A stretch of DNA of 64,000 nt, from the NCBI GenBank assembly GCA_964486995.1, contig CAZAOV010000003.1, positions 686 to 64,685 on the forward strand. The letters run 5' to 3'. The position numbers were made by a program, and so were the translations under genes. The notes beneath the pieces are model-generated. The model searched no databases, was not told where the DNA came from, and saw only the letters and a program-made list of their open reading frames with translations. This stretch comes from an uncultured Gammaproteobacteria bacterium (GTDB taxonomy: Bacteria > Patescibacteriota > Patescibacteriia > SG8-24). Below are positions 27,755-62,485 of the stretch, one piece after another. The stretch's first letter is position 1. Each line of letters begins with the position of its first letter.

Positions 27755-27794
27755 TTATCCCCAAATAGGTCCCTGGCACCTATTTTGTGGATAA
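27755..27794. promoter_or_regulatory. 40-bp palindrome TTATCCCCAAATAGGTCCCTGGCACCTATTTTGTGGATAA with DnaA-box-like ends (right end is a perfect TGTGGATAA)
   Basis: A near-identical element lies at 62445-62485. DnaA box consensus is TTATCCACA. Confidence 0.5.
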
Positions 27795-27831
27795 GTTGGT
27801 TGTTGTAGCTGGTCTGCTAAAATATAGACAT

Positions 27832-28626
27832 ATGAACAAAGTCGCAAAAACAACGGCTCAGGCCGATCTCAAAGCCTCGATTCTAGAGGTGATAAATCAG
27901 CTCGGTGGAATGGGGCAGTTTCTCCAAGAAGGGGAGCGGGTTTTAGTGAAGCCGAATTTTAATACAGCCGACCCGCCACCTGCCTCAACCGATCCGGAAT
28001 TTTTGGCGGCGTTCGTTGATTTGTTGAGCGAGCATGGTGCGGCGCAGGTTACGGTGGGGGAGTCGTCCACTTTTTACGACATCACGAATTATGATTTGCA
28101 GAAAGCCGGTGCGACCGCACTTACTGAAGGTCGACCGTGGCTCGAGGTGCTTTCATTCGACGAAGGGGAGTGGGTTAAAAAGAAAATCGAGGGAGGGGAG
28201 TCACTGAAGAGCGTTCGCGTCCCAAAGATGCTAGAGGATTTTGATAAGATGTTTTTTGTTTGTTGTTTGAAAACCCACTGCTATGCGCAGTTTACCGGTG
28301 CGATTAAATTATCGGTCGGACTGATGAAGCCAAATGAACGCATCGCTCTGCATATGCGAAATCTGCAGCTCAAGATTGCGGAGTTGGCATCGGTATTTTC
28401 GCCGGATTTATGCGTGATGGACGGACGGAAATGTTTTATCACTAAGGGGCCGAGTAAGGGTGAGGTGCGCGAGCCGAATTATATTTTCGCTTCTACTGAT
28501 CGCATCGCATTAGATATAGAGGGCATCAAGGAAATTCAAAAATTTGATGGTAACGATTTATCCGATGTGGTTCCAGAAGAGTTACCTCAAATAAAACGAG
28601 CACTGGAGTTGGGGATTGACAGATAA
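27832..28626 (+). CDS. DUF362 domain-containing protein
   Basis: ERVLVKPNFNTADPP matches the DUF362 core. The track ORF starts with GTG inside the palindrome; MNKVAK at 27832 is the more likely start. Confidence 0.55.
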   Translation: MNKVAKTTAQADLKASILEVINQLGGMGQFLQEGERVLVKPNFNTADPPPASTDPEFLAAFVDLLSEHGAAQVTVGESSTFYDITNYDLQKAGATALTEGRPWLEVLSFDEGEWVKKKIEGGESLKSVRVPKMLEDFDKMFFVCCLKTHCYAQFTGAIKLSVGLMKPNERIALHMRNLQLKIAELASVFSPDLCVMDGRKCFITKGPSKGEVREPNYIFASTDRIALDIEGIKEIQKFDGNDLSDVVPEELPQIKRALELGIDR

Positions 28627-28809
28627 CTCACAAAGGACCGTTTCGTCGGAGTCAAGCCTCCTCTGCAGGGGGAGGCCGGGGTGGAGGGTTTCGAATACGA
28701 GTGCATTCCCGAAACCACGCGGATTAATGTTCGTCGCACACATTTTAGGATTGACAGGGACACTTAGTTTTGATATCGTAACTCGCTAATTAAAATACGG
28801 AGGTCAACG

Positions 28810-29253
28810 ATGGACCTGCTGGCCGATTTGTTTAGCGTACTTCATTATATTTGGAGCGCGGCGTCGGTGCTGCTGTTTGTGGGCGCAATAGTGATGGTCA
28901 TCATCCTGTTCGCCAAGCCGTCCGCGGCCATAGTGAAGAAGATTGCTGCAATAACCGTATGGTCGTTCTTCGGCTGGTGTGGCATTACGATTTTTGCGCA
29001 GATGTTGCTCGGTGGTTGCCCGCTCACCATTATCGAAAATGAATTGCGTACGGCCGAGAATCCGCTGTTCGTTCCAATGGAATCGTTCCTGGTCACTTCG
29101 TGTCACCAGCATTTCGGCTGCAATGTGGGGTCGGAGGTTATCACCCACCTTACCTTAATGCTGGCCGGTTTTTCCGTATTGCTTCTGCTGCTCATGATTA
29201 TCATGGGTAAGGTGACGCAATATGCGCTTGAAGCACGGCGAAGAACAAAATAA
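28810..29253 (+). CDS. Small membrane protein, DUF2784-like (GGCPLT motif)
   Basis: Three or four TM segments with a central LLGGCPLTIIENELR. Confidence 0.45.
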   Translation: MDLLADLFSVLHYIWSAASVLLFVGAIVMVIILFAKPSAAIVKKIAAITVWSFFGWCGITIFAQMLLGGCPLTIIENELRTAENPLFVPMESFLVTSCHQHFGCNVGSEVITHLTLMLAGFSVLLLLLMIIMGKVTQYALEARRRTK

Positions 29254-29271
29254 TTAGATAGGCAGCGTTAT

Positions 29272-29306
29272 AAAGCGGCGGCACGGTAGTCCGCCGCTCT
29301 TTTTTT
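29272..29306. terminator. Bidirectional rho-independent terminator
   Basis: aaagcggcgg-cacggtagtc-cgccgctcttt followed by TTTTTTT. Lies between convergent genes. Confidence 0.75.
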
Positions 29307-29363
29307 GAAACCAAACCAGGTTTGTGTGGATAAAAAACCACCCAAACATGGGTGGCGTATGCG

Positions 29364-30173
29364 TTACTCGCTCGAATTGCGGTTTTCGCGCTCCTTGCGA
29401 ATGAGCTCTTTAAGCTCATCAGCGTATCCGATTTCGCTGCCGTCCTTTTCGGTGTCGGCGGGGCTTCCTTCGTTGGTGTCTTCGGTTCGCCCGGACTGCT
29501 GCTTCGGCTTTTTCTCGCCAGGACGAGTTGATATTGGCGCAGGCGGAGGGGTAGGGGCGTCCGATTTCTCGGGCGGCTGTTCCGGCGCCTGCTGCGCCTT
29601 GCGCTTTTCGTCCTCTTGCAGCTTGCGCTTCAGGCGGTCGATTTCTCGGCCTTCTTCCGTGCCGTTGCCAGGAACCGGGCTCGCATCATCGTCGTTTAGT
29701 CCGGTCTCTTCCCTGAGCCAGTCGCCGGCCCTACGACCCCATCGATTGACCCATCCTGCAGCCCGCCTGCTAGCTCGCTTTGACGCTTCATAGCTCAGTC
29801 GAGCGGTTTCCGCTGCGGTTCCGGCCAGGTCAGCTTCGTCTGTTTGCTCAGCCGCGGTCTTGTTCGCCGCGGCTCGCTGAGGGTCCAATGCATCGTCCTC
29901 TACGGCTCCGGCTTTATTCTGCCTAGTTTCAGCCTTCTTCTCAGCCTCGCGAGCAGATGCCTTGGTCTTATACTCCATGAACATCTGCATGATTTTGACC
30001 GGATCCACCTTAGCGGCGATTCCACGCATTACACTATCCACGCGCTTCTTAAACTCCTCGTCCTTTTTGTACTTCTCATGAAAATACTTGAAGACGTTGT
30101 CCAAAATTTTGAGAAGCACAGGCATGATTACAATCTGAACTAGCTTCAGAAGGTAATCGATCACGAGCTTCAT
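29364..30173 (-). CDS. Hypothetical protein, highly charged and low-complexity (K/E/A/D-rich), with a hydrophobic N-terminal helix
   Basis: ORF of 269 aa. No recognised domain. Confidence 0.4.
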   Translation of the reverse strand: MKLVIDYLLKLVQIVIMPVLLKILDNVFKYFHEKYKKDEEFKKRVDSVMRGIAAKVDPVKIMQMFMEYKTKASAREAEKKAETRQNKAGAVEDDALDPQRAAANKTAAEQTDEADLAGTAAETARLSYEASKRASRRAAGWVNRWGRRAGDWLREETGLNDDDASPVPGNGTEEGREIDRLKRKLQEDEKRKAQQAPEQPPEKSDAPTPPPAPISTRPGEKKPKQQSGRTEDTNEGSPADTEKDGSEIGYADELKELIRKERENRNSSE

Positions 30174-30284
30174 GACCCCTCCTTATCCGCAGTTAAACGA
30201 ATCCGATTTATAAAGGGCTTGTTACGTTACCTATTTTGCCATACTAAGTCAAGATATGGGAAGGGTAGGCGACATTCTAGACTG

Positions 30285-31322
30285 GTTGCACCACCCTGTG
30301 GCAGTATGACCCCTTAGAACATGACACCGAACGACATGCAACACAGGGAACTTTCGCTTCCCGAGCGGCAGTTCCTGGAGGTCCGGCTGCTCGGCAAGTG
30401 GAGCCTGCGGCGGACCGCTACAGCCATGGGCCGGGATCACTCGGCCCTCTCGAGGGAGGTCAGGAACAACCGCTGCCCGGACGGCAGGTACCGCGCGGCC
30501 GAGGCACAGCGACGGTCCGAGGCCGGGAAGCGCCGCTCCGGCCGGGGGCGCAAGCTCGACCGGGACCGGGCGCTGGCGGACTGGGTGACGGACAGGCTCC
30601 GGGACGGATGGTCGCCGGAGAGGATCGCCGGGAGGCTGAAGGCCAGTCCGCCGGAGGGCCTCGAGGGCCGGACGTTGAGCCACGAGACGGTCTACCGCTG
30701 GCTGTACGACGGGGACGGGCGGTACGGCGGGCTGTACAAATACCTCTGGTCGAGACGGAAACGGCGGTACGCGAGGAGGGGCAGGAAGCCGAAAATGGCC
30801 ATGACTGAGGGAAAAGTGCCGCTCTCGGAGCGTCCCGCGGACGGCCTGCCGGGGCACCTAGAGACCGACTCGATGGTCTGGTACGGGTCGAGGGGGCTGC
30901 TCTCGGCCCAGGTCGACCGGGCCACGCTCGCCTGCCGGCTGCGGTGGTGCCCGGACCGGACGGCGGAGGAGACGGCGCACGCGCTGCGGCGCGCGGTCGA
31001 GACCCTGCCGCACCGGTTCGTGCGGGACGTGGCCTTCGACAACGGCTCCGAGTCCGCCCGTCACGGAATCCTCGGCGAGGAGTACGGCATACCGACCTAC
31101 TTCTGCGAGCCGTACTCGCCCTGGCAGAAGTCGCAGGTCGAGAACCTGAACCGCACGATTCGGCACTGGGTGCCGAGGAAAACGAAAGCCCACGACCTTG
31201 CGGCCGTGGACTGGAAGACGCTCGAGGACTGGCTGAACAACCTCCCTCGAAAGTCACTGGGATACCTTACGCCGAACGAGGCGATTAATCAATACCTGTC
31301 AGGTGGTGCAACTGAAACTTGA
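30285..31322 (+). mobile_element. IS30-family insertion sequence (about 1.03 kb) with imperfect terminal inverted repeats. GC about 70% versus about 50% in the flanks.
   Basis: IRL GTTGCACCACCCTGTGGCAGTA (30285-30306). IRR TACCTGTCAGGTGGTGCAAC (31293-31312), whose reverse complement is GTTGCACCACCTGACAGGTA. Encloses one transposase ORF. Confidence 0.8.
30321..31322 (+). CDS. IS30-family DDE transposase
   Basis: N-terminal HTH (WSLRRTATAMGRDHSALSREV). DDE triad context: HLETDSMVW, AFDNGSE, PYSPWQKSQVENLNRTIR. The stop codon lies just past the IRR. Confidence 0.9.
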   Translation: MTPNDMQHRELSLPERQFLEVRLLGKWSLRRTATAMGRDHSALSREVRNNRCPDGRYRAAEAQRRSEAGKRRSGRGRKLDRDRALADWVTDRLRDGWSPERIAGRLKASPPEGLEGRTLSHETVYRWLYDGDGRYGGLYKYLWSRRKRRYARRGRKPKMAMTEGKVPLSERPADGLPGHLETDSMVWYGSRGLLSAQVDRATLACRLRWCPDRTAEETAHALRRAVETLPHRFVRDVAFDNGSESARHGILGEEYGIPTYFCEPYSPWQKSQVENLNRTIRHWVPRKTKAHDLAAVDWKTLEDWLNNLPRKSLGYLTPNEAINQYLSGGATET

Positions 31323-31440
31323 ACTTCCGTAGATAATATATTATTTCGCAGTAAGATTGTTGACATTTTTTGCTGGTCATGATACAATCGCGTGCTCTAG
31401 AGGCGGCATGGTGTCGCATCGGAAGCAGGGAGGATGTGAT

Positions 31441-32349
31441 ATGAAGCTTAGGTCTTTCGCTATGTCTATCGTGGTGGCAGTCATCGCGTTCAGCAGCTTT
31501 GGCTGCGGTTCGCAGGATATTCCACCGGCCATGCGCGGGCAGATGTACGACGCTACGGGCGCGGCTGCGCTCTGGATGTCCGGTGGTCAGGGTCTGACCG
31601 GTCCCGTTCTGGGTCCTGGGACCTATTACACCGGTCTTTATGACAGCATCCGCATGGTAGACTGTTCAGAGTCCGTAGAGCACGAGGGTCTCTCCAGTCT
31701 CACCCGCGACGGTATCCAGTTTGGCCTGGAGGCAGAGATTACCTATTCCATCGACTGTTCGGATGATGTGGTTGGCAAGGTGCTGACTACGCTGCGGCCG
31801 AACGAGCAGGGGGTGATTTCCAGCAAGTCAGCCTACTTGCGTTACGTGCGGCCGTCCATTCGTGAGGTGGTTCGTGAGGCTATTGCGCCGCATATGGCCA
31901 ACGAGGTCAACTCCGAGCGTGACGCCATCATCAACGAGATTCAGAGCAGCTTCATCAAGTCCATGCAGGACGGCAACCGGCGCTTCGTTAAGGTGTCGAC
32001 GCTGGCGCTGACCAACATGGATTTCCCGGAGAAGCTCGACCAGGCGAACGTGGACCGAGCTCAGCAGGACATTTTGCGCGAAAAAGCCATTGCCGAGCGC
32101 GAGCGGGTTGAGGCCGAGACCGAGACCGCGCGCATGCGCAAGCAGCTGCGCACTCGTGAAGGTGAAGCCGAGGCCGCTCGTATCGATATCATCGGGAAGG
32201 CGCTTCAGCGTTACCCTGAATATCTGCGTTACGACATGCAGCAGCGGATGAGTGGTATTTATCGTGAGGCCGGCCAACAGGGCAACATGGTCATTACGGC
32301 ACCTGATCCCAATATTATGATTCAGCCGCCAACCAAGTCGGGGCAGTAG
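31441..32349 (+). CDS. SPFH/band-7 (stomatin/prohibitin-like) domain protein with signal peptide/TM and a C-terminal coiled coil
   Basis: LTRDGIQFGLEAEITYSI SPFH core. Coiled coil AQQDILREKAIAERERVEAETETARMRKQ. The track ORF starts at 31357; MKLRSFAMSIVVA at 31441 is the more likely start. GC about 60%. Confidence 0.65.
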   Translation: MKLRSFAMSIVVAVIAFSSFGCGSQDIPPAMRGQMYDATGAAALWMSGGQGLTGPVLGPGTYYTGLYDSIRMVDCSESVEHEGLSSLTRDGIQFGLEAEITYSIDCSDDVVGKVLTTLRPNEQGVISSKSAYLRYVRPSIREVVREAIAPHMANEVNSERDAIINEIQSSFIKSMQDGNRRFVKVSTLALTNMDFPEKLDQANVDRAQQDILREKAIAERERVEAETETARMRKQLRTREGEAEAARIDIIGKALQRYPEYLRYDMQQRMSGIYREAGQQGNMVITAPDPNIMIQPPTKSGQ

Positions 32350-32350
32350 C

Positions 32351-32605
32351 ATGTTGGTGGTGCTGTATATCGTGGTGGCCGGGGGTGTCATCTATGGTCT
32401 TACCCGGATTGGGCTCAGGCTGCTCGACAACCACAAGGAGCTGAAGATGCTTCGCGAGGAGCGCGCCGCACGTCTCGAAACGGCCAAAACCGCTGAGCAC
32501 GTGGTGCATGAGCTGTTGCTCGATAAGGAGATGGCCTGCGAGGTGCAGGAACGTCTCGAGGAGGGGCTTCGGCGAGAGCATCTTTCGTCGAAAGCGGACG
32601 ACTAA
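32351..32605 (+). CDS. Small membrane protein cotranscribed with the SPFH gene (possible NfeD-like partner)
   Basis: Start codon 1 nt after the SPFH stop. One TM helix, then charged helices. Terminator cggtcgcat-t-atgcggccg+TTTTTT at 32608-32640. Confidence 0.45.
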   Translation: MLVVLYIVVAGGVIYGLTRIGLRLLDNHKELKMLREERAARLETAKTAEHVVHELLLDKEMACEVQERLEEGLRREHLSSKADD

Positions 32606-32688
32606 TCTTATGGCGGTCGCATTATGCGGCCGTTTTTTGTTACCAATAATTTCTGTATTATTAATTCATTATTTCTAAATAACTTTCC

Positions 32689-33288
32689 ATGCGCATAACA
32701 TCTCGCATCCAACAGGCGATTGATAAGGCGGCTCAGCTGCACGATGGCCAGCGACGCAAGGCCGATGATTTGCCGTATATTGTTCATCCGATGACCGTAG
32801 CGGCGACGCTGTTGCCGTTTACCGACGACGAGGACGTGATAATTGCGGCGTTATTTCATGATGTGTTGGAGGATGTGGTTGGATATTCGGCGGATGATAT
32901 GCGGCGCGAATGGGGTGAGCGGATTACTGGCATTGTGCAGGCAGTAACCGAGACTGGGAGTCGGCCAGGGATGTCCGATGAAGAGGAGCGGGCGAGCTGG
33001 CGCGCTCGTAAGGACGCGTATTTGGTGGCGATTCAACGGGACAGCACGGATGCGCTGATGATTTGCGCGGCCGATAAGTTGCATAATCTGCGCGCTACGA
33101 TGATTGCCATCGCGCGCGACGGGCATGATGTGGTTGAGTCGAGGTTTAACTCCACGTTTAAACAGCAGTTGTGGTTTTACGGCGAGGTGCTGAAGATTTT
33201 GCAGGAGCGGCTGCCCGGACCGCTTAGCGAGGATGTGGCCGCAGAATACGAACGATCTAAGGTGATGATGAGCCGCTCGGAGCTTTGA
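32689..33288 (+). CDS. HD-domain (p)ppGpp-hydrolase-like protein (small alarmone hydrolase / Mesh1-like)
   Basis: LHDGQRRKADDLPYIVHPMTVAATLL and AALFHDVLEDV match the Rel/SpoT hydrolase HD motif (HxxQxRK...PY..HP..VA). 199 aa with no synthetase domain. Confidence 0.65.
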   Translation: MRITSRIQQAIDKAAQLHDGQRRKADDLPYIVHPMTVAATLLPFTDDEDVIIAALFHDVLEDVVGYSADDMRREWGERITGIVQAVTETGSRPGMSDEEERASWRARKDAYLVAIQRDSTDALMICAADKLHNLRATMIAIARDGHDVVESRFNSTFKQQLWFYGEVLKILQERLPGPLSEDVAAEYERSKVMMSRSEL

Positions 33289-33357
33289 CTCGCGATATAA
33301 TATATGGTAGATTAACGCGCTGACTTTGGTCGGCGTGTTTTCAAAAATGGAGACGAC

Positions 33358-33741
33358 ATGAGTGATGTCTGTGAGGTCGACGCACAGCACTGCTGTGAAG
33401 ATGAGTACTATGAGGAATTTTTCGATGAGGAAGATGTTGCGTTTCCGTTCGAGCCGTGGCCACTGATGCCGTATCCGCCGATGTTGTACACGCGTTGGCG
33501 ATTGCCCAAGCATCTCGAGGAGGGGCATAGGACGGGGGATCCAACCATGAAGCAGGCCACCTGGCTGTTTCGGACTAAGCGCCCGCGACTTCATGTGAGC
33601 TCTTTGCCGGCGGTGTGTCGCGTTGCGCGGAACATGGCTAGGCGGTTAGCGGCCAGACAGAACGTGCTGTTCGCGCGTCGCCCGTTTCGGGATAGGCATA
33701 TCGTCGTTCCGAGTCGTCGGTGTGTTAAAATAAATCTATGA
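33358..33741 (+). CDS. Hypothetical protein (acidic N-terminus, basic C-terminus)
   Basis: GGAGA RBS 5 nt upstream. No domain recognised. An overlapping minus-strand ORF is less convincing. Confidence 0.3.
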   Translation: MSDVCEVDAQHCCEDEYYEEFFDEEDVAFPFEPWPLMPYPPMLYTRWRLPKHLEEGHRTGDPTMKQATWLFRTKRPRLHVSSLPAVCRVARNMARRLAARQNVLFARRPFRDRHIVVPSRRCVKINL

Positions 33742-33843
33742 ATCGAAGCCGTCTGTAAGGGGCGGTTTTTTGTTTTCGTATGGTTGTCCAGCTTTGGTTG
33801 GGTGCTATAGTATTTACGTTTCTATCAATGTACCCACAAACTT

Positions 33844-34041
33844 ATGCGCGACGGAACAAACCGAGCGGACATCTACCCCGGTCTGGCGGTAGCGATTACG
33901 CTTAAAAAAGACCAAGGCACCAACAAGCTAACGCAGGGTTTTGTTAAGGATATCCTCACCAACAAACCGTTTCACCCGCGTGGCATAAAAGTGCGGCTCG
34001 ACACCGGCGAGGTTGGTCGGGTGCAGGTGATTGTTGATTAG
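33844..34041 (+). CDS. YwbE-family small protein (DUF2196)
   Basis: 65 aa with GIKVRLDTGEVGRVQVIV, characteristic of the YwbE family. Confidence 0.55.
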   Translation: MRDGTNRADIYPGLAVAITLKKDQGTNKLTQGFVKDILTNKPFHPRGIKVRLDTGEVGRVQVIVD

Positions 34042-34163
34042 TTGCGTACGAAAAATCGTCAGATAGTCTAATAAAGCACATATCCACATATCGAACCTGT
34101 TTTCGCTTGTGGATATGTGTTTATATTTTGTCATAGCTCATTAAAAAAATAGAGGAGGTTAAA

Positions 34164-35426
34164 ATGACGACTGGCGCTCCGATTGCTGGGGGCAAGACCA
34201 AGATTATTTACGCCGATCCGCTTAATCCGCACCTAGTGACGATTCAATCCAAGGATGATCTTACCGCTGGTGACGGTGCCAAGCACGATGTGATGGCCGG
34301 CAAGGCCGTGATGGCCAATCAGACCACGTGCAATAACTTTCGGTTCTTGAGCAAATGCGGCGTAGAGTCCGCGTTTCTGCAGCAGCTCGGCGACACCGCG
34401 TTTCAGGCCGTTAAATGCGACATGATTCCGCTCGAGGTGGTAACGCGGCGCGAGGCTCACGGGTCGTTTTTGAAGCGCGAACCGCAGTTGCACAAGGGTC
34501 ATCTGTTTCCACGATTGCGCGTTGAGTTTTATCTGAAGACCGCAGGTGGGATGTGGCGAGCACAGCCGCTTCAGAAAGATGATCCGTATATGCTGCTGAG
34601 CGAAGATGGCTTGGCTCATTTGTATCGACCGGATCAGCCGTTCGTTGGTGCGCAGTCGTTTTTGACCATCAGCGACGCGCCGCTCGACGCCGACCCGGCG
34701 AAGTACGCCGAGCTTGATGGTGTTGCACGCCATGTTTTTCTCGCACTCGAGAAAGCCTGGCAGTTGCAGGGGCGGCGGCTGGTGGACATGAAAATCGAAT
34801 TCGGTATCGGGCCGTCCGGAAAAATTATGCTCGCCGACGTTATCGACAATGACTCGTGGCGGGTGCTCGAGGAGGGTCAGTACATCGACAAGCAGGTGTA
34901 TCGCGACGGCGGTGCGCTAGAGGCGGTGTCCTCGCGCCACAAAAAGGTGATGCAGCTTACCGGACAGTTTCAGTGCCCGCCGCAGCAGATAATTATCTGG
35001 CGCGGTTCCGAATCCGACAACGTGGATTTGTATCCAGAGACTTTTTACTCCATCGTCAACGACTGGTCGTGCCGATTGGAGTTTGTTGCCTGCTCGATGC
35101 ACAAGAATCCAGAACGCGGACTGGAACAACTGCGCAACATGCTGCAGGAACGACCAGACTCAGTGGTGATCGCGCACATTGGACGAAGTAACGGCGCCGG
35201 TCCGACCATCGCCGCGCATACCAATGTGCCGGTAATCACCGTACCTGCATCGTATCGCGAGTTTCCGAACGACGTTTGGTCGTCCCTGCGCACGCCGAGC
35301 GATGTGCCGGTCATGACCGTGCTCGAACCGAAAAACGCCACGTTCGCCGCGATTCGTATTCTCGGTCAGCGTAACCCTGCTCTGTATGCGCCCATACGCC
35401 TGCGGACCGAAGATCATTGGGCCTAG
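34164..35426 (+). CDS. Bifunctional PAICS-like fusion: SAICAR synthetase (PurC) N-terminal domain + class II AIR carboxylase (PurE) C-terminal domain
   Basis: PurC domain: GKTKIIYADP..LTAGDGAK, IPLEVVTRREAHGSFLKR, LVDMKIEFG. PurE domain: IIIWRGSESD, SMHK (class II SAHK-type rather than class I SAHR), GRSNGAGP, DVWSSLRTPS (close to the human PAICS C-terminal domain). Confidence 0.8.
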   Translation: MTTGAPIAGGKTKIIYADPLNPHLVTIQSKDDLTAGDGAKHDVMAGKAVMANQTTCNNFRFLSKCGVESAFLQQLGDTAFQAVKCDMIPLEVVTRREAHGSFLKREPQLHKGHLFPRLRVEFYLKTAGGMWRAQPLQKDDPYMLLSEDGLAHLYRPDQPFVGAQSFLTISDAPLDADPAKYAELDGVARHVFLALEKAWQLQGRRLVDMKIEFGIGPSGKIMLADVIDNDSWRVLEEGQYIDKQVYRDGGALEAVSSRHKKVMQLTGQFQCPPQQIIIWRGSESDNVDLYPETFYSIVNDWSCRLEFVACSMHKNPERGLEQLRNMLQERPDSVVIAHIGRSNGAGPTIAAHTNVPVITVPASYREFPNDVWSSLRTPSDVPVMTVLEPKNATFAAIRILGQRNPALYAPIRLRTEDHWA

Positions 35427-35493
35427 CAATAATTTTATGACCGTACGATATGTGCGGTTTTTTGTTTGCTAAACCGGACCGCTCGTAATAGAA

Positions 35494-37227
35494 TTGGCTC
35501 ATCAAATATTAATTATCAAACATATGCCTGGTAGCAAAAATGCCGCACTGACCATGATTCTAATTGCGGCGATAATCGCACTGATTGGATATTTTTTGTT
35601 TAGGGATGATTTCTCGCCGCCGGAGCCCGCTCCATCAGAAGCCGAAGCCGAGGAACAAGTCACCACCTTGGGCGGGCAAATTATTTACGTCGAAGGTGCA
35701 GTCGAATGGCGTCGGGCTGGTGGCGAATGGTTGCGTGCCGGCACCGGCATCAATCTGAGTGAGGGCGATTCGGTGGAAACGCTCATCGGCGGGAGGGTGA
35801 TTGTAAGTTTGGACGACGGTAGTATGTTGCGGTTGGATTCTGAATCCAGGCTCACGTTATCATCAATGGATCCGGAACATATGATTGTTTCCAACAACAG
35901 CGGTTCGGTTTACTCACGCGTCGTGCAGTCCGAACGCGTGTTCGAGGTGCAGGCTGACGACATCATTTACGAATCACTGGGTACGGCCTACCTGACGCAC
36001 AATAAAGAAAAACTCAAAGGTGTAGAGGTGTACCACAGCAAGGTGAAAGTCAAAGACGCCGAAAACAACGAAATTATCGTAGACGAAGGCAAGATGTATT
36101 TCACATTGCATACGGATGAACCGGATTCGGCCGGTAAGGTGTTTGACATCGATAAGGAGCAGGCGCAGAAAGACGATTTCATTAAATGGAACAAGGATGA
36201 GGATTACATCAAGTTTAAAGATCATCTCGGCTATCTGGCTGATAGCGACGAGTCGCTAGTGGAAAGCATCGCGCTCGAAAATAGTGGTGGCAGTCAGGTG
36301 AGTTGGCGGGCATCGAGCGAATCCGTGTCCGGCTACAAGCTGGTCTGGTCCAAGACTTCCGGCCCGACCTATCCGATCCGCGATACCGATCAATACATAT
36401 ATTATGATGACCCGACCGTGAGCAGTGGCGAGGTTTATCCGTTCGACGGGGCCGGCACTTATTACGTACGTGTCTGCGAATATCTTAACGGTCCGTGCGG
36501 GGAGTATTCGAATGAGGTGACGGTAGAATTGGAGACCGAAGAGACAGATTTTAGTTCGGCTAAAGCTGTACCAGAAGACGAGAAATATGAAGTGTCGAAC
36601 GAGAAAAAAAACGAGCCGAAATCCGGCGGTGTAACCTCCATCAGCGCAACCGCAAATGATTCTGGTGCGGTAAGCTGGATTGTTGACGGTTATTCGGCGC
36701 AGGGCTACAAAGTGGTCTGGTCTAAAAATCCAGGTCCAGCCTACCCGACCCGCAGCGGCGACCGCTATGAGTATTATTCAGATTCCTCGCGTCGTTCCGG
36801 TTCGGTGTGGGCTTTTTCCGGTGACGGTACCTACTACGTTCGCGTTTGCGAATATCTCGGCGGCCGATGCGGCGTGTATTCGAATCAGGTGACGGTTGAT
36901 TTAGCTGGAAAAACCAAAGACGTTTCAGACAGTGGTGACGTTGACGGACAAGTGCTCGGGCTAACAATAACCTCAGGAAGCGGCGGTAATGTCAGATGGG
37001 CAGTGAACGGCTATTCAGAAATGGGATTTAAGGTAGTTTGGTCCAAGAACCCCAGCCCCACCTACCCGACCCGCAGCGGCGACCGGTATCTGTATTACGA
37101 CGATCCGTTTCGTGTCGCGGCGCTCGTCGAGGCTTTCGACGGTCCAGGCACTTACTATGTGCGAGTTTGTGAATACCTTGGTGGAAAATGCGGCGTGTAC
37201 TCGAATGAGATTTCAATAGAGATGTAA
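35494..37227 (+). CDS. Membrane-anchored FecR-domain protein with three C-terminal tandem repeats of about 110 aa, each with a conserved Cys pair
   Basis: FecR-like: GGQIIYVEGAVEWRRAGGEWLRAGTGINLSEGDSVETLIGGRVIVSLDDGSMLRL. Repeat unit GYKVVWSKNPGP.YPTRSGDRY.YY...GTYYVRVCEYLGG.CGVYSN occurs three times. Confidence 0.6.
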   Translation: MAHQILIIKHMPGSKNAALTMILIAAIIALIGYFLFRDDFSPPEPAPSEAEAEEQVTTLGGQIIYVEGAVEWRRAGGEWLRAGTGINLSEGDSVETLIGGRVIVSLDDGSMLRLDSESRLTLSSMDPEHMIVSNNSGSVYSRVVQSERVFEVQADDIIYESLGTAYLTHNKEKLKGVEVYHSKVKVKDAENNEIIVDEGKMYFTLHTDEPDSAGKVFDIDKEQAQKDDFIKWNKDEDYIKFKDHLGYLADSDESLVESIALENSGGSQVSWRASSESVSGYKLVWSKTSGPTYPIRDTDQYIYYDDPTVSSGEVYPFDGAGTYYVRVCEYLNGPCGEYSNEVTVELETEETDFSSAKAVPEDEKYEVSNEKKNEPKSGGVTSISATANDSGAVSWIVDGYSAQGYKVVWSKNPGPAYPTRSGDRYEYYSDSSRRSGSVWAFSGDGTYYVRVCEYLGGRCGVYSNQVTVDLAGKTKDVSDSGDVDGQVLGLTITSGSGGNVRWAVNGYSEMGFKVVWSKNPSPTYPTRSGDRYLYYDDPFRVAALVEAFDGPGTYYVRVCEYLGGKCGVYSNEISIEM

Positions 37228-37651
37228 GAGCATAGAAAAAGTTCGAGCGTTCAATGCAGAGTTCTAGAATTAGAATCCGAAAGGCCTAGTAAAGTCGCAA
37301 GCTCCCCAAATCCTCAATCAGCCGCAAAAAGCCAAAAGTGCGGGCCGTAGCTAACACCTGCACCCAAGACCTTCTCGTATGGACAGCCTATACTTGGAGA
37401 TTTGGGTGCAGGATTTAATTATGAGCTCCAGGTGAGGGGATTGAGGTGAGGGCGTCTCGGATTCGAGCGCGTGCAAAGTACAGGCATTCCGTACTCGGAG
37501 GGTTGTGGCACGGGCCTTAGCTGCCATGTTTCGGGTTCTGGTTTATGGTTTGGGGGCGCGTAAGATACAGTTCTGTCGCACGAATGCATTTAAAGCCGAG
37601 CTTGACCAAACCCATACAAACCGTCTTTAATGATACGAGCTTGAGCTGCCT

Positions 37652-37972: not shown

Positions 37973-38060
37973 AGATTTGTGTTAGCGGGGGTATCCCTGC
38001 TATTTTTTATTTTCCGCATCTACCTTATACTTATAGCTAGTGTTGTTAAGGCTGCGTTAA

Positions 38061-38723: not shown

Positions 38724-38731
38724 TTATCCAT

Positions 38732-40371: not shown

Positions 40372-40394
40372 CAGTGTCATCGAGTCATTTTTTT

Positions 40395-46169: not shown

Positions 46170-46196
46170 TTAGCAGTCCATGGGTTAGACTGCTAA
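46170..46196 (+). promoter_or_regulatory. CIRCE-like HrcA operator variant TTAGCAGTC-N9-GACTGCTAA
   Basis: The consensus CIRCE is TTAGCACTC-N9-GAGTGCTAA. Here the CA(C>G)TC and GA(G>C)TG positions change symmetrically. It lies 80 nt upstream of hrcA. Confidence 0.65.
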
Positions 46197-46207
46197 TCCA
46201 TTAATAT

Positions 46208-46270
46208 CCTGCCTGTCTGTACTTTCTTGAGTACAGACAGGCAGTACTTGAGAAAGTACAGACAGGCAAG
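46208..46270 (+). promoter_or_regulatory. Second N9 inverted repeat CCTGCCTGTCTGTAC-TTTCTTGAG-GTACAGACAGGCAG, followed by a third half-site (TACTTGAGAAA-GTACAGACAGGCAAG) abutting the hrcA start
   Basis: Read directly from the sequence. Same 9-nt-spacer geometry as CIRCE but with unrelated arms. The half-site GTACAGACAGGCA(A)G occurs twice in direct orientation. Confidence 0.55.
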
Positions 46271-51115: not shown

Positions 51116-51132
51116 CAATCACGCGCTCGAGA

Positions 51133-51200: not shown

Positions 51201-51311
51201 AGAAGGAACCAAAAAATCCTTATTGTGGATATCCGCACGACACTACCCGCATCCCATGCTATACTAACAACGATTAAGGAGGAATAATGCGACATTGTCG
51301 CTAATTGGGCG

Positions 51312-52818: not shown

Positions 52819-52954
52819 ATAATTTTTTAAAGAATGTTTTAGTTGATTCTATTACATTATAATCCCTTATCGTATGGTTAGTCATTGGTCGTTGTGGATA
52901 AGGAATAATATAAGAAGACAAAATGTGGTAAAATCGAGACAGATTCATTCGATT

Positions 52955-54334
52955 ATGCCAGCAAAGAAAAAGGCATCGAGTAAGCCAGCCACGAAGCGAG
53001 CCGTCAAGAAATCGATTACAGCTCGTTCCGCCAAAGTCGCGCCCAAGAAACGGGCGACGCCTTCTTCTGGTGCCTCAAAGAAGAAAATGACGAGTAAAGC
53101 CAAGACAAGAAAAACCGCGGCCCAGAAGACGGCCAAGAATACAACCACGAAAAAAATCACCAAGAAAACTGCTGAGGTGAAGACCGCTACTGTACCGGTT
53201 AAACATAAACCTCGATACGAGTATGCGCTGGCGTTTATTTTGACGCTCAGCGCAATTTTGTTGATTGGCTATACGGCTCGGATAGTAACCGCCGCGGAAT
53301 TCGCAGAACCGCCAGGCGGTCCGTCTGAAGGCAATATTCCGGTTACGGTTTGGAATCGTGACGCTACGGTCATTGGCAGTGAGGGTGGTATTTGGCCAGA
53401 GAAGCAACAGGACACTTCTATTAACATCGACGGACAAATATATTTTGGCGATGTATCGCTTCAGCTGGCCAATGATGGGGTGCCTCAATACGGACTGTAT
53501 GGACAGATTCATTACTACGATGGTTTGACCGGCATTACTTACATGGGCTCGGAAGATTATTTTATCAAGATGGATGCGACTCATACTAATTATCCTGGGG
53601 CTGGAGACACTAGCAACTACTCACGTTTTTACGTCAACCGTGGCGGGACGCTATATGGTGCCGGCGGCGGTTCCATCGGTAGTTATTTTGTGGTTGGTAG
53701 CTCCAACAAACAAATGCTTGAAAACGGTTCTTCGACTTATATCTATCAAGGCCTAGCCAGATTTGATGAGACAAGTCCCGGCGGAGACTATTATGCCGAC
53801 CCGGACTTAGACTATTTTTTGTGGATGAAGTCGTATGACTATACCGGTAGTCCGGATGTGGGTTATACTGACCGATTTACCGTAGATGTAACCGGAGACG
53901 TTTGGGCCAGCGAAGACATCAAAGCCGACGGCTGCTTCGGTCCAAGTTTTATCGGTCTAACCGTCACCGGCGGACAGGGCGGTGGCGTGTTTCGTCCTCA
54001 AGATGTAGCTGGGTATTACGGGGGCAACAATCGTTGCCAAGTTGATTATCCCGATTACGAAGGCACACATGTTTGTCAGATTTCAGAGCTGCTCGAAAGC
54101 ATCAAGTGTTCCGAACCCGGTGACGCATTTCGTAGCGTACTTGATGGGACTCGAGCTTGGGTAAACGGCGGTCCCCCAGGACATATTTCTAATTACAACG
54201 ATTGTGAAGGCTGGTCCAGTTCGTCCGCGGACAGCTATGCTCGCTATTGGATTTTTGACACGATTACCGGCGGGCGCGGAACAGGGGTTTCTTGTAATAC
54301 CGTAAACGGACTCCAGTTCGCCTGCTGTTACTAG
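52955..54334 (+). CDS. Hypothetical membrane protein with Lys-rich (histone H1-like) cytoplasmic N-terminal tail, one TM helix, and a Gly/Tyr/Asp-rich extracellular domain with a C-terminal Cys cluster
   Basis: MPAKKKASSKPATKRAVKK...KKITKKTAEVK, then the TM helix ALAFILTLSAILLIGY. The track ORF starts at 52874; MPAKKK at 52955 is preferred. Confidence 0.5.
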   Translation: MPAKKKASSKPATKRAVKKSITARSAKVAPKKRATPSSGASKKKMTSKAKTRKTAAQKTAKNTTTKKITKKTAEVKTATVPVKHKPRYEYALAFILTLSAILLIGYTARIVTAAEFAEPPGGPSEGNIPVTVWNRDATVIGSEGGIWPEKQQDTSINIDGQIYFGDVSLQLANDGVPQYGLYGQIHYYDGLTGITYMGSEDYFIKMDATHTNYPGAGDTSNYSRFYVNRGGTLYGAGGGSIGSYFVVGSSNKQMLENGSSTYIYQGLARFDETSPGGDYYADPDLDYFLWMKSYDYTGSPDVGYTDRFTVDVTGDVWASEDIKADGCFGPSFIGLTVTGGQGGGVFRPQDVAGYYGGNNRCQVDYPDYEGTHVCQISELLESIKCSEPGDAFRSVLDGTRAWVNGGPPGHISNYNDCEGWSSSSADSYARYWIFDTITGGRGTGVSCNTVNGLQFACCY

Positions 54335-54584
54335 TCACCAAACCAAAAACAAAATAAAAACAGCTCCGTCTTAGCGGCGCTGAATTTATTTTAGGTTATG
54401 TGATTGATAAAGGTTCACAACTCATAGATTTGAGCGAGCATTTGGCATGTCAGAATATAGATTTTTACCTAAAAATGAAAGATAAACCGTCAGAAATCCC
54501 TGCGGTTCATTTTAAGTTTTGAAACAAAATAGTTATTCACGTGTTAAGACAGCATTTTTTCAATATAATTAAGGCTAGGAAACC

Positions 54585-54604
54585 TGTGGATAATTTGATA
54601 TAAT
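54585..54604 (+). promoter_or_regulatory. DnaA box (TGTGGATAA) immediately upstream of an extended -10 promoter element (TGATATAAT), about 60 nt before the 2573-aa surface-protein gene
   Basis: A perfect 9-mer match to the reverse complement of TTATCCACA at 54585-54593. TG-n-TATAAT at 54596-54604. Confidence 0.4.
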
Positions 54605-54664
54605 ATAAAGGTAGATAAGTTGCTAGATGTGACCGGCATTTAGCACAGTTTAACCCCCGCAACC

Positions 54665-57600: not shown

Positions 57601-60600
57601 GGTTGGCAGCAACCAATACATAACTGAGTATGGCGCTAGTCTCCGTGTCGGGAACCCCTCGGGATACGTGAGCATTACCCCGCAAAATACTAGCTATGCG
57701 CATTTTTACACTGATAGACCTAAATTCATTTTTAATAAGCCGATAGATGTTATCGGCGGTCGTTACGGCTCCTATACCGGTAACGTAATTTTAAGTGCTG
57801 GGAGCATTCGGGATGATTTGGTCATCGATAATGCTACCGGTGTCACCACCATCAATAATGGCTTGCGTCTGCCGACCGGTGCGGTGGCCGGTCATGCCCT
57901 AGTGTCAGACGCCAGCGGTAACGCTACTTGGCAGGCGTTGAGTGGAATTGGCGGCGGAGGTACACAGAATTACTTGCCGAAGTTTTCGGCGGCGACCACA
58001 TTAGCTGATTCCCAAGTTTATGATAACGGCTCAAATGTTGGTATCGGTACAGCCACCCCCGAGTATAAATTGGACGTTAATGGAGACATCGTTAATCGCG
58101 GCCGACTCTATCAATATACTCAGCTTGGCTCGTCAAACGCAGCACACGGCATCAGCTGGTATCAACCGAGTTACGTGACTTGGATTGACTACATGGCCGC
58201 ACCTGGTACGGTCAACGCACCAAATGGCACGCCGGCACCGGCCGATTCAGATAACGGCGTCACTCATTGGGCGCGTCGATTTAACATCGAAAATCAGGCG
58301 AACTTCGGCTGGGTGTTCGAATCCGGCACAAACAACGCCACACAGCCGAGCGTCAAGCTGTCCATTAACGCCGCTTCTGGAAACTTACATACAGTCGGCT
58401 CCGGTTATTTTGACGATAATGTCGGCGTGGGAACTACGACTCCTAGCGCACCATTGCATGTAGCATCAGCAGATTCGGCAAATCCGGGCATCCAGGTAGG
58501 TGACGGCAGTACCGGTCGAATTCAGATTGGCGTAAACGGCTGGTTTGATGATGGGACATATTTCAGCCCGATTGGCGGCAGATCACTCTATGTACGCTCA
58601 ACTACTCCGGCTACTTACATTTATTCTCCCAATATCTTTCTTGGTTCTACTACCGGTCAGTACGTTCGTGTACGTGACAATCAGTTGTTTGGCGACGATT
58701 GGGTAATCAATAATGGTTTCGGTGGCAATTGGGGGATCGGCACCATCACCCCGGCGTACACCCTAGATGTCAATGGGACCGTTCGTGTTACTGACTCGCT
58801 GATAATCGACGGCAGTAACGCCATTACCGACCCAGACGACACCAAGAACACCATGCTTGGCTATAATGCCGGTCAGAACATCACTACTGGCTGGGGTGTT
58901 ACATTGATTGGTGAATACGCCGGTGCCGAACACACGACCGCTTATGCCAACACATTCGTTGGTTATCAGTCCGGCGAATCGGTGTCGGGTGTGGGAAATG
59001 CAACTTCGAACGTGGTCATGGGTTTTCGCGCTGGTCGATGGCTTACGGGATCAGAAAATACTCTAATCGGTACCGAAGCTGGAGCCGGATATAACGCAGG
59101 AAGTTGTTGCGATTATGTTGGCGGAGAGAATTCTGGCTCAGAGAATACCTTTGTCGGTATTTTTGCTGGAAATCGCAACTCCACCGGCAGCTATAATGTT
59201 GGCCTGGGTAAGCATGCCGGGTACTACAATACCGTCGGTAACCTAAATACCTATCTTGGTTATCAAGCCGGCCTGTATCACCAGGGGAGTCAGAACATCA
59301 TTATCGGCGGGGATGCCGGGGCGCAAACGAGCGGCGATTCCAGTACCGGGAATAACCTAATCTTGATTGGCTACGGAATTCAGCCACGCACCACTGCCGT
59401 CAGCGATTATTTGAACATTGGCGACACTTTGTATGGTGATTTGGCTGCCGGACGAATTGGTATCGGGACAGCTGCTCCTGCCAGGGCGCTTGACTTAAGC
59501 AGTTCTGGCCAAATAACTTTCGGTAACAACGTGACCTTGGATTCGACCGCCGGTATTTATTGGTACAGCGGTTCTGATTACGGCATCTATCGCGGTGCCG
59601 GTGCTTGGTCGAGCCCTGACTATCGGCAACTGTACATGAAGTGGTCCACGGGCCTGGTTTTAGACGGAGGTAGCGCATACGGCAAGAGTGGCACCACTAT
59701 TCAGCCTGGCGCTGGAAATGTTGGTATTGGTACTTATCCCTCGGCGTATAAGTTAGATGTTAATGGTCAGGTAAACGGTACCGAGCTGTGTATCGCCGGT
59801 GACTGTCGTAGCGTTTGGCCCGGTGCCGGTGCGACGAGCGGATCTGGTGTGCAGTATGGCACGACGGTTTGGTCGGGCGGCAGCACCTTGACTTCGGTTG
59901 GCACCGGACAGCCCGGACAGCTGTATATTTCCAAAGGGGCTTCCGCATATCCAGAATTTGTCACGATGAGCGGTGATGCGACCATTTCTTCGACCGGTGT
60001 AGTGACTGTTGCAAACGGTTCACATACGCATAGTGCCGCTAATATCACATCAGGAATATTGGCGGTAGCCCGCGGTGGAACCGGCAGCAGCACCCTGAGC
60101 AATCTCATCACCCTTGGCACGCATACGACCGGCAATTACGTTAACGATATAACCGCTGGCACCGGAATTACGGTCAGTGGAGTGGCCGGCGAAGGCTGGA
60201 GTCCGACCCTTGCGGTGGACGAGGGTGCATTAACCCTCGGTAACATCGGCGGCTCGCTGTCATTGGGAACTAAGACCAGTGGAGACTACGTTGCGTCACT
60301 GATTGCCGGTAGTGGGGTAACCATAACTGGCGGGACGGGTGAAGGTTCCACCCCCACCATCAGCGTGAGCGGTGGCGCAGTGCCAAGCGGACCGGCCGGC
60401 GGAGACTTAAACGGCAACTATCCTAATCCGCAGGTTGATAACAATTCACATACGCACATTTCCAGCAATATTACCGGCTCTGCGGCTGGGCAGTTTATGG
60501 TTTCAAATTCATCAAATGTTCCTACATGGGTAAGTATGAGTGGTGACGCTTCGATGAATTCCGCTGGGAGTGTAACCGTGAGTAACAACTCACACGTCCA

Positions 60601-62386: not shown

Positions 62387-62444
62387 GATTTAGCTGCATA
62401 ATATATAGAAGACCCGTCGGGAAACCGGCGGGCTTTTTGAATTA

Positions 62445-62485
62445 TTATCCACAGAATAGGTGCCTGGCACCTATTCTGTGGATAA
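62445..62485. promoter_or_regulatory. 41-bp perfect palindrome TTATCCACAGAATAGGTGCCTGGCACCTATTCTGTGGATAA: two perfect inverted DnaA boxes flanking a 23-bp core. Second member of the family seen at 27755-27794.
   Basis: Read directly from the sequence. It lies between the terminator of the surface-protein gene (62411-62440) and cysS. Confidence 0.6.

Follow-up and report, generated by a model that had tools for sequence, protein, structure and literature searches.

A DnaA-box 9-mer upstream of conserved promoters and in the arms of a REP-like palindrome in a Uhrbacteria-like CPR genome

The intergenic DNA of a Uhrbacteria-like CPR genome carries repeated copies of a 9-mer, TGTGGATAW, that is identical to the DnaA-box consensus. 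We observed it as solitary sites, two of which are conserved at a fixed distance from promoters in related genomes, and as the arms of short palindromes, one of which is missing at the corresponding site of five relatives. We see about an even chance that two modules have been combined here: a conserved DnaA-consensus 9-mer and a REP-like insertion element with the 9-mer as its arms. All coordinates refer to the window, i.e. the whole stretch of 64,000 nt (contig CAZAOV010000003.1) that was analysed; those of palindromes and inverted pairs are given without strand.

RESULTS

Enrichment of the 9-mer in intergenic DNA

The window contains nine perfect TGTGGATAW sites, more than the four perfect 9-mers counted by the first-pass annotation. 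Six are TTATCCACA (at 27786, 29325, 52893, 54585, 62445 and 62477) and three are ATATCCACA (34080, 34108 and 51224); both forms match the DnaA-box 9-mer TTATCCACA in its stringent form, TTWTNCACA. In 300 first-order Markov simulations the mean was 0.83 perfect sites and the maximum four. With up to one mismatch allowed, 26 sites are observed vs 12.4 ± 4.0 in dinucleotide shuffles, and none of 100 shuffles reaches 26. The density of consensus boxes is ∼13 times that of Escherichia coli (6 per 64 kb vs 32 per 4.6 Mb; PMC11317965). Every perfect site is intergenic, and intergenic DNA makes up ∼9% of the window (start codons were placed by orthology for this assignment; with maximum-length ORFs, three sites score as coding). 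Neither dnaA nor dnaN was found within the window by Pfam/NCBIfam searches, in agreement with the earlier statement that no such locus is nearby. We also looked for dnaA in a relative via a Band_7 neighbour, and found none in the 10 kb upstream, which hold nrdJ, a protease, an MFS gene and yidC.

Seven of the sites read TGTGGATAW on the + strand, including all solitary ones. Five of these seven (51224, 52893, 54585 and the gene-side arms of palindrome B and pair C, see below) lie 5–27 nt before the −10 of a + strand gene, where both extended −10s and −10-like hexamers were counted. The other two are 29325, with no −10 within 70 nt, and the arm of palindrome A, which is 49 nt away.

Solitary 9-mers at conserved promoters

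One solitary site (51224–51232, +; TGTGGATAT) is located 27 nt 5′ of the extended −10 TGCTATACT (51257–51265) of a gene after dnaJ that encodes a 198-aa membrane protein. Another (52893–52901, +; TGTGGATAA) is located, again, 27 nt 5′ of the extended −10 TGGTAAAAT (52926–52934) of a gene for a lysine-rich, membrane-anchored surface protein, whose start codon is probably at 52955. The 27-nt gap is kept at the first promoter in L256/L128, L130 and L134 (19 nt in L132), and at the second in L127, L256/L128, L130/L131 and L132, so that in six related genomes TTGTGGATA is found 27 nt 5′ of an extended −10 at two orthologous promoters (with the single exception of 19 nt). An alignment of these promoters (10 sequences from six genomes, with GC contents of 43–60% and CysS identity down to 69%) has TTGTGGATA and TG.TA...T as its only invariant columns; the whole stretch that separates these two elements has diverged. 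Among gaps of 0–60 nt, nine perfect sites fall at 27 nt and at most one at any other value. The 9-mer occupies about −48 to −40, just 5′ of a weak or absent −35. It is missing from both promoters in L259, a more distant Uhrbacteria genome. The site at 51224 forms a near-palindrome, TGTGGATATCCGCA, with abutting or overlapping half-sites (TGTGGATATCC); the sites of the 486-aa gene at the second conserved promoter are not palindromic. Solitary sites cannot form hairpins.

The third solitary site (54585–54593, +; TGTGGATAA) belongs to the gene of a 2573-aa fibre protein. It is followed by TTTGA and then TATAAT, and is thus 5 nt from the hexamer of the extended −10 TGATATAAT (54596–54604). The first-pass annotation had pointed out this box, and it is indeed present; it is not conserved in the closest relative, however, as the orthologous fibre promoter of L127 keeps TTTGCTATAATATA and lacks the 9-mer.

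Other readings, weighed on the sequence alone, were rejected. A sigma-54 promoter would have its TGGCAC here, but TTGC does not occur at the distance required; CRP/FNR and LexA boxes have a different half-site order; and for an element of an alternative sigma factor (−10/−35), the 27-nt distance is too large and a conserved partner is lacking.

Palindromes with 9-mer arms

Palindrome A (62445–62485), found again where the first-pass annotation had placed it, is a perfect 41-bp palindrome, TTATCCACAGAATAGGTGCCTGGCACCTATTCTGTGGATAA. It consists of the 9-mer TTATCCACA, a G, the 21-bp core AATAGGTGCCTGGCACCTATT (62455–62475), a C and TGTGGATAA. As single-stranded DNA it folds with −19.9 kcal/mol (z = −10.4) into a 19-bp stem that contains the DnaA-type box. 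The terminator of the fibre gene (62413–62432) ends 12 nt 5′ of palindrome A, and the −10 of cysS (62535–62540) is 49 nt beyond it. The cysS promoter (62532–62540, +) has the extended −10 TGTTAGCAT, 8 nt 5′ of the ATG, and is near-leaderless.

The close relative of A, palindrome B, was also confirmed (27755–27794). It is a decayed 40-bp copy, TTATCCCCA-AATAGGTCCCTGGCACCTATT-T-TGTGGATAA, identical to A in 37 out of 41 alignment columns; the three changes that break the symmetry are all in the left half, and the gene-side right half is intact. The first base of B falls within the T-tail of a terminator (27730–27751), and its right 9-mer is 23 nt from TGcTAAAAT (27815–27823), the −10 of a leaderless DUF362 gene. 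Both palindromes sit just after terminators and before genes, as had been described. They are short (40–41 bp) and intergenic, within the REP size range of ∼20–65 nt. Neither was accepted as an intrinsic terminator itself, for which a T-run should come after a GC-rich hairpin, as there is no T-run (CGTAATC comes after A, and GTTGGTT after B). Genuine, separate terminators stand just 5′ of each, and the window has other post-terminator hairpins (e.g. 10586–10608).

Beyond these we found a third inverted pair, C (34080–34116; ATATCCACA-TATCGAACCTGTTTTCGCT-TGTGGATAT), whose arms are perfect 9-mers with the spacing ATATCCACA-N19-TGTGGATAT. Its interior is unlike that of A and B, being only weakly palindromic with a CCTGT centre. 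Pair C folds with −7.7 kcal/mol (z = −5.6), and B and C both fold weakly (−7 to −8 kcal/mol). It sits 5′ of a purC-purE fusion gene (34164), with its right 9-mer 5 nt from TATATT (34122–34127). The clade lacks a close orthologue of the fusion gene, which was probably acquired horizontally, and homologues of its product did not lead to the B and C loci in relatives. Site D (29312–29333, −) consists of a terminator T-tail, then TTATCCACA, then a mini-palindrome, CAAACCTGGTTTG. The tail of its terminator (29356–29337, −) reads TTTTTATCCA, a junction identical to that of B. D may be a truncated member of the palindrome family, to which its link is weak.

Insertion polymorphism at the cysS site

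Palindrome A is absent from the orthologous cysS intergenic site of five relatives (L127, L128, L130, L132 and L134). At the same site, L257/L258 have a tandem doublet, GATTCAACTTCT-GGTGCCTGTCACC-AGAAGTTGAATC, with the same apex (GGTGCCTGKCACC) and different arms. None of the six relatives has a 9-mer there. Upstream of cysS, the genomes L127, L128, L130, L132, L134 and L257 all have the motif TG(c/t)TAGCAT or a variant (in L134, GGTGTTAGCAT), at varying distances from the start codon as called. Because this promoter motif anchors the orthologous site in relatives without the palindrome, A represents extra DNA. The window, L127 and L257 are about equidistant from one another (CysS identities of 80–82%), and palindromes have turned over between these related genomes, with an empty site in five and another variant in L257/L258.

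The core in other phyla

The 21-bp centre of A is identical to palindromes dispersed in some Gammaproteobacteria and Planctomycetes. At least 110 loci matched the core pattern in a scan, many per genome, and none among the matches listed has 9-mer flanks; the 21-bp top is constant in these loci and the arms vary by lineage. In L058, two copies of the core flank an ORF that matches Pfam Y1_Tnp (46.9 bits vs a cutoff of 23). In Planctomycete loci a related ORF adjoins the palindrome, with a Pfam match below threshold. The association of the 21-bp palindrome with Y1 transposase genes in Gammaproteobacteria and Planctomycetes merits attention by itself.

The first-pass annotation had proposed looking for the core without DnaA-box ends. 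It does occur so in other phyla, and the 13-nt apex occurs without box ends in the sister genome, at the same cysS locus. Core and boxes are thus separable modules, not an obligate unit. A metagenome scan for the junction of core and 9-mer (GGCACCTATTNTGTGGATAA) gave 16 matches, coding or chance and none of them palindromic, and a scan of viral contigs for the core gave none. The viral-contig matches to TTATCCACA-N19–24-TGTGGATAA (at least 120) were set aside as uninformative: they represent DnaA-box clusters of the usual kind, which contain additional boxes and have a non-palindromic interior. Profile searches found no Y1 transposase gene, either in the window or across 263 kb of DNA from CPR relatives. 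Our literature searches on the core sequence, on DnaA boxes in Patescibacteria and on DnaA boxes in REPs returned nothing relevant.

DISCUSSION

A proposed two-module explanation

The first module would be the 9-mer, (T)TGTGGATAW, serving as a promoter-upstream protein-binding site in a Uhrbacteria-like CPR clade. Its presumed binder is DnaA, which would work as a transcription factor: we consider it very improbable a priori that a 9-mer conserved on its own account would agree in every base with the one DnaA consensus unless DnaA were involved. The strict 27-nt spacing suggests contact with RNA polymerase, i.e. activation, and we infer that DnaA would activate the conserved promoters. The earlier suggestion of DnaA-regulated promoter elements thus holds as far as a promoter-upstream 9-mer conserved at fixed spacing is concerned; for DnaA as the regulator, the evidence is identity to the consensus.

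The second module would be a REP-like, hairpin-forming insertion with the conserved apex GGTGCC-TGK-CACC, which lands just 3′ of intrinsic terminators and was presumably moved as single-stranded DNA by a Y1 (RAYT-type) enzyme. As its arms are the 9-mer, each insertion would place an inverted pair of consensus boxes in intergenic DNA, one of which would end up 23–49 nt 5′ of the next gene's −10; copies A and B may in this way influence the genes that follow them. Of the readings offered by the first-pass annotation, we favour that of a palindromic repeat family with DnaA boxes, because the element is polymorphic and its centre is shared with a family of Y1-adjacent palindromes.

A bolder version, in which the REP-type hairpin, in a CPR bacterium with very few regulators, spreads its DnaA-box arms so as to bring new promoters under DnaA or to seed hairpins for helicase loading by DnaA, and in which, independently, DnaA at a rigid −44 position activates the conserved pair of surface-protein promoters, is in our view rather doubtful.

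Comparison with known systems

REPs are extragenic, host-protein-binding sequences of 21–65 nt that are cut and rejoined by TnpA-REP (PMC6006769). A and B resemble the REP/REPIN-RAYT system (TnpA-REP, Y1 HUH) in being short (40–41 bp), extragenic, hairpin-forming and repeated just after terminators; A is present or absent among close relatives, with other variants at the locus in sister genomes, and its 21-bp centre is the same as in palindromes that are scattered over those other genomes and, in L058, stand on both sides of a Y1_Tnp gene. Differences are also apparent. The window has no visible RAYT gene, and its 64 kb hold two clear palindrome copies (A and B) and two doubtful ones (C and D), a very low visible copy number. 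By the tag definitions of PMC6006769 and PMC3733652, A and B lack an unpaired 5′ GT[AG]G or CGTC tag, A being perfect to its ends, and not an imperfect palindrome: ATAG and CTAT are placed symmetrically at the foot of the core, and GTGG occurs inside the 9-mer, on its 3′ side. The arms of A are, moreover, the consensus DnaA box, and we found no description of such REPs in the literature. That the core matches some REP family by coincidence has a probability that is not negligible (0.1–1% by our estimate), as a palindrome has only ∼10^6 possible 10-bp arms.

E. coli BIMEs carry IHF sites, and Neisseria Correia elements carry promoters and IHF sites. A and B are likewise small non-coding repeats that bring a putative host-protein site beside genes, but here the site is a DnaA-type box, the unit is much smaller, and the structure of terminal inverted repeats plus target duplication is lacking. 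MITEs are 50–500 bp long, with terminal inverted repeats that match those of a parent IS and a target-site duplication; A, at 41 bp and with no flanking direct repeat or target duplication, was not assigned to them. A tie to the DDE transposase at 30321–31322 was also rejected, as it has no inverted repeats that match the palindromes.

DnaA boxes that control transcription occur at dnaA, nrdAB, polA, purH and guaBA in E. coli, sda in Bacillus subtilis and gcrA in Caulobacter. We know of no DnaA regulon in the CPR lineage. DnaA can switch promoters on or off, those of purine-biosynthesis genes among them (PMC8203912, PMC11317965). In the window, too, consensus TTATCCACA occurs at promoters outside oriC, at positions where it could serve activation (about −44) or repression (between the −35 and the −10), and one site precedes a purine-biosynthesis gene. 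In contrast to the known cases, the predicted boxes here are single, with a rigid 27-nt distance to an extended −10; they occur in a CPR bacterium, and the targets are surface and membrane proteins, which do not form a typical DnaA regulon. In E. coli, only 13 out of the 32 boxes that match the consensus are occupied in vivo, and DnaA favours boxes paired at 2–3 bp (PMC11317965), whereas the CPR boxes are single or 19–23 bp apart.

Alternative explanations

The 9-mer might be the operator of another clade-specific protein, with a coincidental or competitive likeness to the DnaA box and with the palindromes as symmetric dimer operators. The motif is limited to a sub-clade and absent in L259, it precedes genes for surface and membrane proteins, and the near-palindrome at 51224 is what a dimer would be expected to use. 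Its variable base is the outermost one (A/T), unlike in the R-box variants of E. coli, where DnaA boxes vary at other positions. In E. coli, moreover, DnaA frequently leaves single consensus boxes unoccupied (PMC11317965). We nevertheless consider this unlikely: an unrelated factor would hardly be expected to match the single DnaA consensus 9/9 at nine conserved sites, no palindromy is seen in the sites of the 486-aa gene, and CPR genomes have few regulators (the window shows HrcA and two TrmB-like proteins only). It is slightly less probable still that a REP-like apex was inserted into older inverted pairs of 9-mers, which would be host operators outside the mobile unit. Pair C, with perfect 9-mer arms around another interior, would fit such a history, as would the abutting or overlapping half-sites at 51224, and REPs nested within other palindromes are on record (PMC3733652). 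But A and B, at unlinked loci, share their whole 40/41 bp in addition to the 9-mers, no 9-mer is present at the cysS site in any of six relatives, and three independent, pre-existing inverted pairs would be needed.

The palindromes could also be immobile sites that the host has selected for handling DnaA, with paired inverted boxes that titrate the protein or change its nucleotide state, as at datA and DARS. The ∼13-fold box density and the inverted, perfectly symmetric boxes of an undecayed A point that way; A is, however, not kept even at CysS identities of 80–82%, and the element at the same site in the sister genome carries no boxes. As datA and DARS need at least three boxes in defined arrangements plus IHF sites, and only two boxes and no such arrangement are seen here, we regard this as improbable. 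We give distinctly less credence to a role like that of the ABC-primosome A-site, with helicase and primase loading for restart or lagging-strand priming at a hairpin whose stem has one duplex DnaA box at its base. Palindrome A does form a stable hairpin with the box in its 19-bp stem, and according to PMC6127211, which cites Masai 1990 and 1995, the A-site is a single-stranded DNA hairpin that holds a DnaA box, where bound DnaA recruits DnaB-DnaC. The A-site is, however, a plasmid or engineered single-strand initiation signal, and such sites are not known to be used on chromosomes; B and C fold only weakly, and the solitary sites form no hairpins at all. We know of no chromosomal repeated family of A-site-like hairpins. 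That leftover hairpins happen to hold the 9-mer by chance is the reading to which we give almost no weight. Only two full copies are visible, and other post-terminator hairpins exist in the window, but it is already contradicted by the excess of sites over simulation, by their exclusively intergenic positions and by their perfect conservation at fixed spacing across genomes.

Implications

To our knowledge, almost nothing is known about gene regulation and mobile DNA in CPR/Patescibacteria. If DnaA binds the 9-mer, the protein that initiates replication would have a second role in these reduced genomes, that of activating surface-protein genes at specific promoters, and the rigid 27-nt architecture provides a promoter model that is open to direct test. 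If the palindromes are of the REP type, repeats processed as single strands would reach CPR genomes, and a mobile repeat could carry sites for an essential host protein, which would be one route for the spread of regulatory sites.

DnaA-box sites in the window

Both palindromes of the first-pass annotation lie where it had placed them: palindrome A (62445–62485) is a perfect 41-bp palindrome, palindrome B (27755–27794) is its 40-bp relative, and the arms of both are the DnaA-box 9-mer (consensus TGTGGATAW). The box TGTGGATAA at the promoter of the long surface-fibre gene (54585–54593) is likewise present, followed by TTTGA and TATAAT, which make an extended -10. All the sites listed were real, but the list was too short: it had overlooked perfect boxes at 29325 and 52893, and ATATCCACA/TGTGGATAT variants at 34080, 34108 and 51224. 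The variants at 34080/34108 form a third inverted pair (pair C, 34080–34116; arms 19 nt apart), which precedes a purC-purE fusion gene. The window has nine perfect boxes, compared with a mean of 0.83 and a maximum of 4 in first-order Markov simulations, and 26 boxes with at most one mismatch (12.4 expected). With gene starts set by orthology, all the perfect boxes are intergenic, whereas intergenic DNA makes up only ∼9% of the window. The observation is real, and stronger than first reported.

All solitary sites (those outside inverted pairs) have TGTGGATAW on the + strand. The extended -10 of a + strand gene, or a hexamer resembling a -10, comes 5–27 nt after the boxes at 51224, 52893 and 54585 and after those arms of B and C that face a gene; the distance from the arm of A to the -10 of cysS is 49 nt, and no -10 was found within 70 nt of the box at 29325. 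A one-off box (GGTGGATAA) at 22626 is part of a repeat context, that of the near-identical ∼50-nt trailers (22439–22487 and 22634–22684, minus strand) directly 3' of tRNA-Thr and tRNA-Gly.

Genomic context

Comparison of CysS proteins places the window, which is part of an 81.5-kb contig, in Patescibacteria (CPR), near Candidatus Uhrbacteria. Nearly all of its genes are encoded on the + strand, and its GC skew stays positive from end to end; the window therefore contains no replication origin. Pfam and NCBIfam passes found no dnaA, dnaN or Y1 transposase gene in it. A GC-rich stretch (∼29400–37500; GC up to 0.60, versus ∼0.50 elsewhere in the window) contains a DDE transposase (30321–31322; HTH_38 and rve), Band_7, an HD-domain gene, the purC-purE fusion (closest homologues at most 60% identical and mostly from outside the clade) and a FecR-like gene, and was probably acquired horizontally, as an island. 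Regulators seen in the window are limited to HrcA and two TrmB-family proteins, the latter encoded side by side (3051–4584). Upstream of hrcA (46170–46270) is a CIRCE-like inverted repeat, TTAGCAGTC-N9-GACTGCTAA, then a perfect 15-bp inverted repeat and another copy of AGTACAGACAGGCA. Four tandem paralogues of ∼750 aa (O-antigen-ligase-like, with TPR repeats) follow an exopolysaccharide gene cluster (13209–22336). In a relative's 1.5-Mb contig, an integrated element near dnaX (L260:20013–21455) carries a phage-type integrase, an HTH gene and a REP_ORF2-G2P rolling-circle replication gene.

The 9-mer as a conserved promoter element

We compared the syntenic dnaK-dnaJ...cysS region of relatives (loci L127, L128/L256, L130/L131, L132, L134/L135, L257/L258 and L259; CysS identity to the window from 82% down to 63%). 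Two promoters there share one architecture: that of a 198-aa membrane-protein gene directly after dnaJ, and that of the next gene, encoding a lysine-rich, membrane-anchored protein of 453–486 aa. At both, in the window and five relatives, TGTGGATAW precedes an extended -10 (TGnTAnnnT) by exactly 27 nt; nine cases are perfect, and the gap at one of the two L132 promoters is 19 nt instead. When gaps of 0–60 nt to all extended -10 matches are counted, nine sites fall at 27 and at most one at every other gap. In an alignment of 10 promoters, no columns are invariant except those of TTGTGGATA and TG.TA...T; the intervening 27 nt show no conservation, and the GC content of these genomes ranges from 43% to 60%. 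The conserved box sits at about -48 to -40, beside a weak or absent -35, a position typical of an activator that would touch RNA polymerase. In L130 (6129–6153) a second, one-off box (TGTGGTTAA) precedes the conserved box of the 486-aa gene, in direct orientation and 7 bp apart.

The motif is missing at both promoters of L259, a more distant relative, and the element is therefore confined to a sub-clade. The fibre-promoter box (5-nt gap) is not kept in L127, though the -10 region is. Site density in the window is thus about three times that of its relatives, the palindromes supplying part of the excess.

The core palindrome in other phyla

One genome per species was scanned with the 21-bp core of palindrome A (AATAGGTNCCNGGNACCTATT), which gave at least 110 loci (L001–L110). 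The matches listed come from several Gammaproteobacteria MAGs (including Steroidobacteraceae and Nevskiaceae) and several Pirellula/Planctomycetota MAGs, with single copies elsewhere, so that unrelated MAGs of different phyla have one repeat core in common. Among these matches AATAGGTGCCWGGCACCTATT occurs in many copies per genome, often paired, and the constant 21 bp carry short lineage-specific extensions: GAA...TTC or ATA...TAT in Gammaproteobacteria, and CCAAGTC...GACTTGG, including one compensated variant, in Pirellula. None of the matches listed has the 9-mer at its ends; the core without DnaA-box ends in Gammaproteobacteria and Planctomycetes loci is what the first-pass annotation had named as evidence against its proposal.

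In L058 (3788–4575) a 226-aa ORF with a match to Pfam Y1_Tnp (IS200-like; 46.9 bits, cutoff 23) lies between two copies of the core, as in the REPtrons known from RAYTs (PMC6006769). In the planctomycete loci a 385–400-aa ORF with an HUH-like SNHLH motif starts right beside the palindrome; it has weak similarity to the L058 protein, and its Pfam matches are below threshold. The core is therefore a repeat of a Y1-transposase-associated family in these two phyla. No transposase able to move the element was seen in the CPR DNA (the window and ∼260 kb of relatives).

Placement of the palindromes

A begins 12 nt, and B 0 nt, after the T-tail of a terminator. On the minus strand the box at 29325 has a junction of the same kind, and after it comes a mini-palindrome with CCTGG at its centre; pair C has a CCTGT centre. 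These likenesses are only suggestive of a link to the palindrome family. Another post-terminator hairpin, GGCTCTGGG-ACAGG-CCAAGAGCC (10586–10608), whose loop reads CCTGT on the minus strand, is situated between a terminator and the promoter that follows and has no 9-mer. In B, only the half away from the gene has decayed; the half toward the DUF362 gene, which ends 23 nt before the -10, shows no decay, a single case that only hints at selection. The palindromes lack the canonical GT[AG]G tag, and their copy number is low.

In five relatives (L127, L128, L130, L132 and L134) the site upstream of cysS has neither a palindrome nor any 9-mer; in L127 the -10 follows the terminator after only ∼30 nt. 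L257 (3114–3182) and L258 (724–792), two independent assemblies (80% CysS identity), have between the fibre-gene terminator and the cysS promoter, where the window has A, a tandem doublet of a different palindrome of 37 bp, GATTCAACTTCT-GGTGCCTGTCACC-AGAAGTTGAATC (GATTCAACTTCTGGTGCCTGTCACCAGAAGTTGAATC). The apex of this palindrome differs from that of A (GGTGCCTGGCACC) by a single change; the arms bear no relation to those of A. Since the window, L127 and L257 are about equidistant (80–82% CysS identity) and differ at this site, either insertion there was recurrent, or one lineage replaced an ancestral element and another lost it. Both kinds of behaviour are typical of REPs.

The cysS promoter of the relatives reads TG(c/t)TAGCAT or a variant (GGTGTTAGCAT in L134). 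Its last base precedes the ATG by 7–9 nt in the window, L127, L128, L130 and L257; the ATG called in L132 and L134 is much further downstream. In the window the extended -10 is only 8 nt before the ATG of both cysS (62532–62551) and the DUF362 gene (27815–27834), which implies leaderless or near-leaderless mRNAs; upstream of cysS this arrangement is shared by L127, L128, L130 and L257, but not by L132 or L134.

Origin of the arms and the candidate binding protein

Pair C would fit a core that was inserted into pre-existing 9-mer operators, and keeps that explanation alive; however, A and B are alike over the entire unit of arms and core (37 of 41 columns identical) at unlinked loci, and no relative has 9-mers at the site of A. 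The 9-mers in this genome are therefore part of the repeated unit, rather than operators that received a core. The probability that a lineage-specific 10-bp arm matches the independently selected 9-mer of the clade by chance is ∼10^-5, so a causal link between the two is likely: the element may have taken up the host operator sequence as its arms, or arms of such sequence may have been favoured.

The one argument for DnaA as the putative binder is the exact identity of the 9-mer to its consensus, which is widely conserved across bacteria. Binding by DnaA would fit its known roles as activator and repressor, purine genes included (PMC8203912, PMC11317965). Against it count the targets, which here are surface proteins, and the in vivo behaviour of Escherichia coli DnaA, which bound only 13 of 32 consensus boxes and prefers boxes 2–3 bp apart (PMC11317965). 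What defines the A-site of the ABC primosome is a hairpin whose stem contains a DnaA box (PMC6127211), and palindrome A is predicted to fold into such a hairpin; that A acts as an A-site is nevertheless improbable.

Judged from sequence, the best reading of the palindromes is a REP-like insertion element whose arms are DnaA boxes; it is superimposed on a promoter element of DnaA-box type that the clade conserves, and the rigid architecture of the latter (9-mer, 27-nt gap and -10) is the most testable part.
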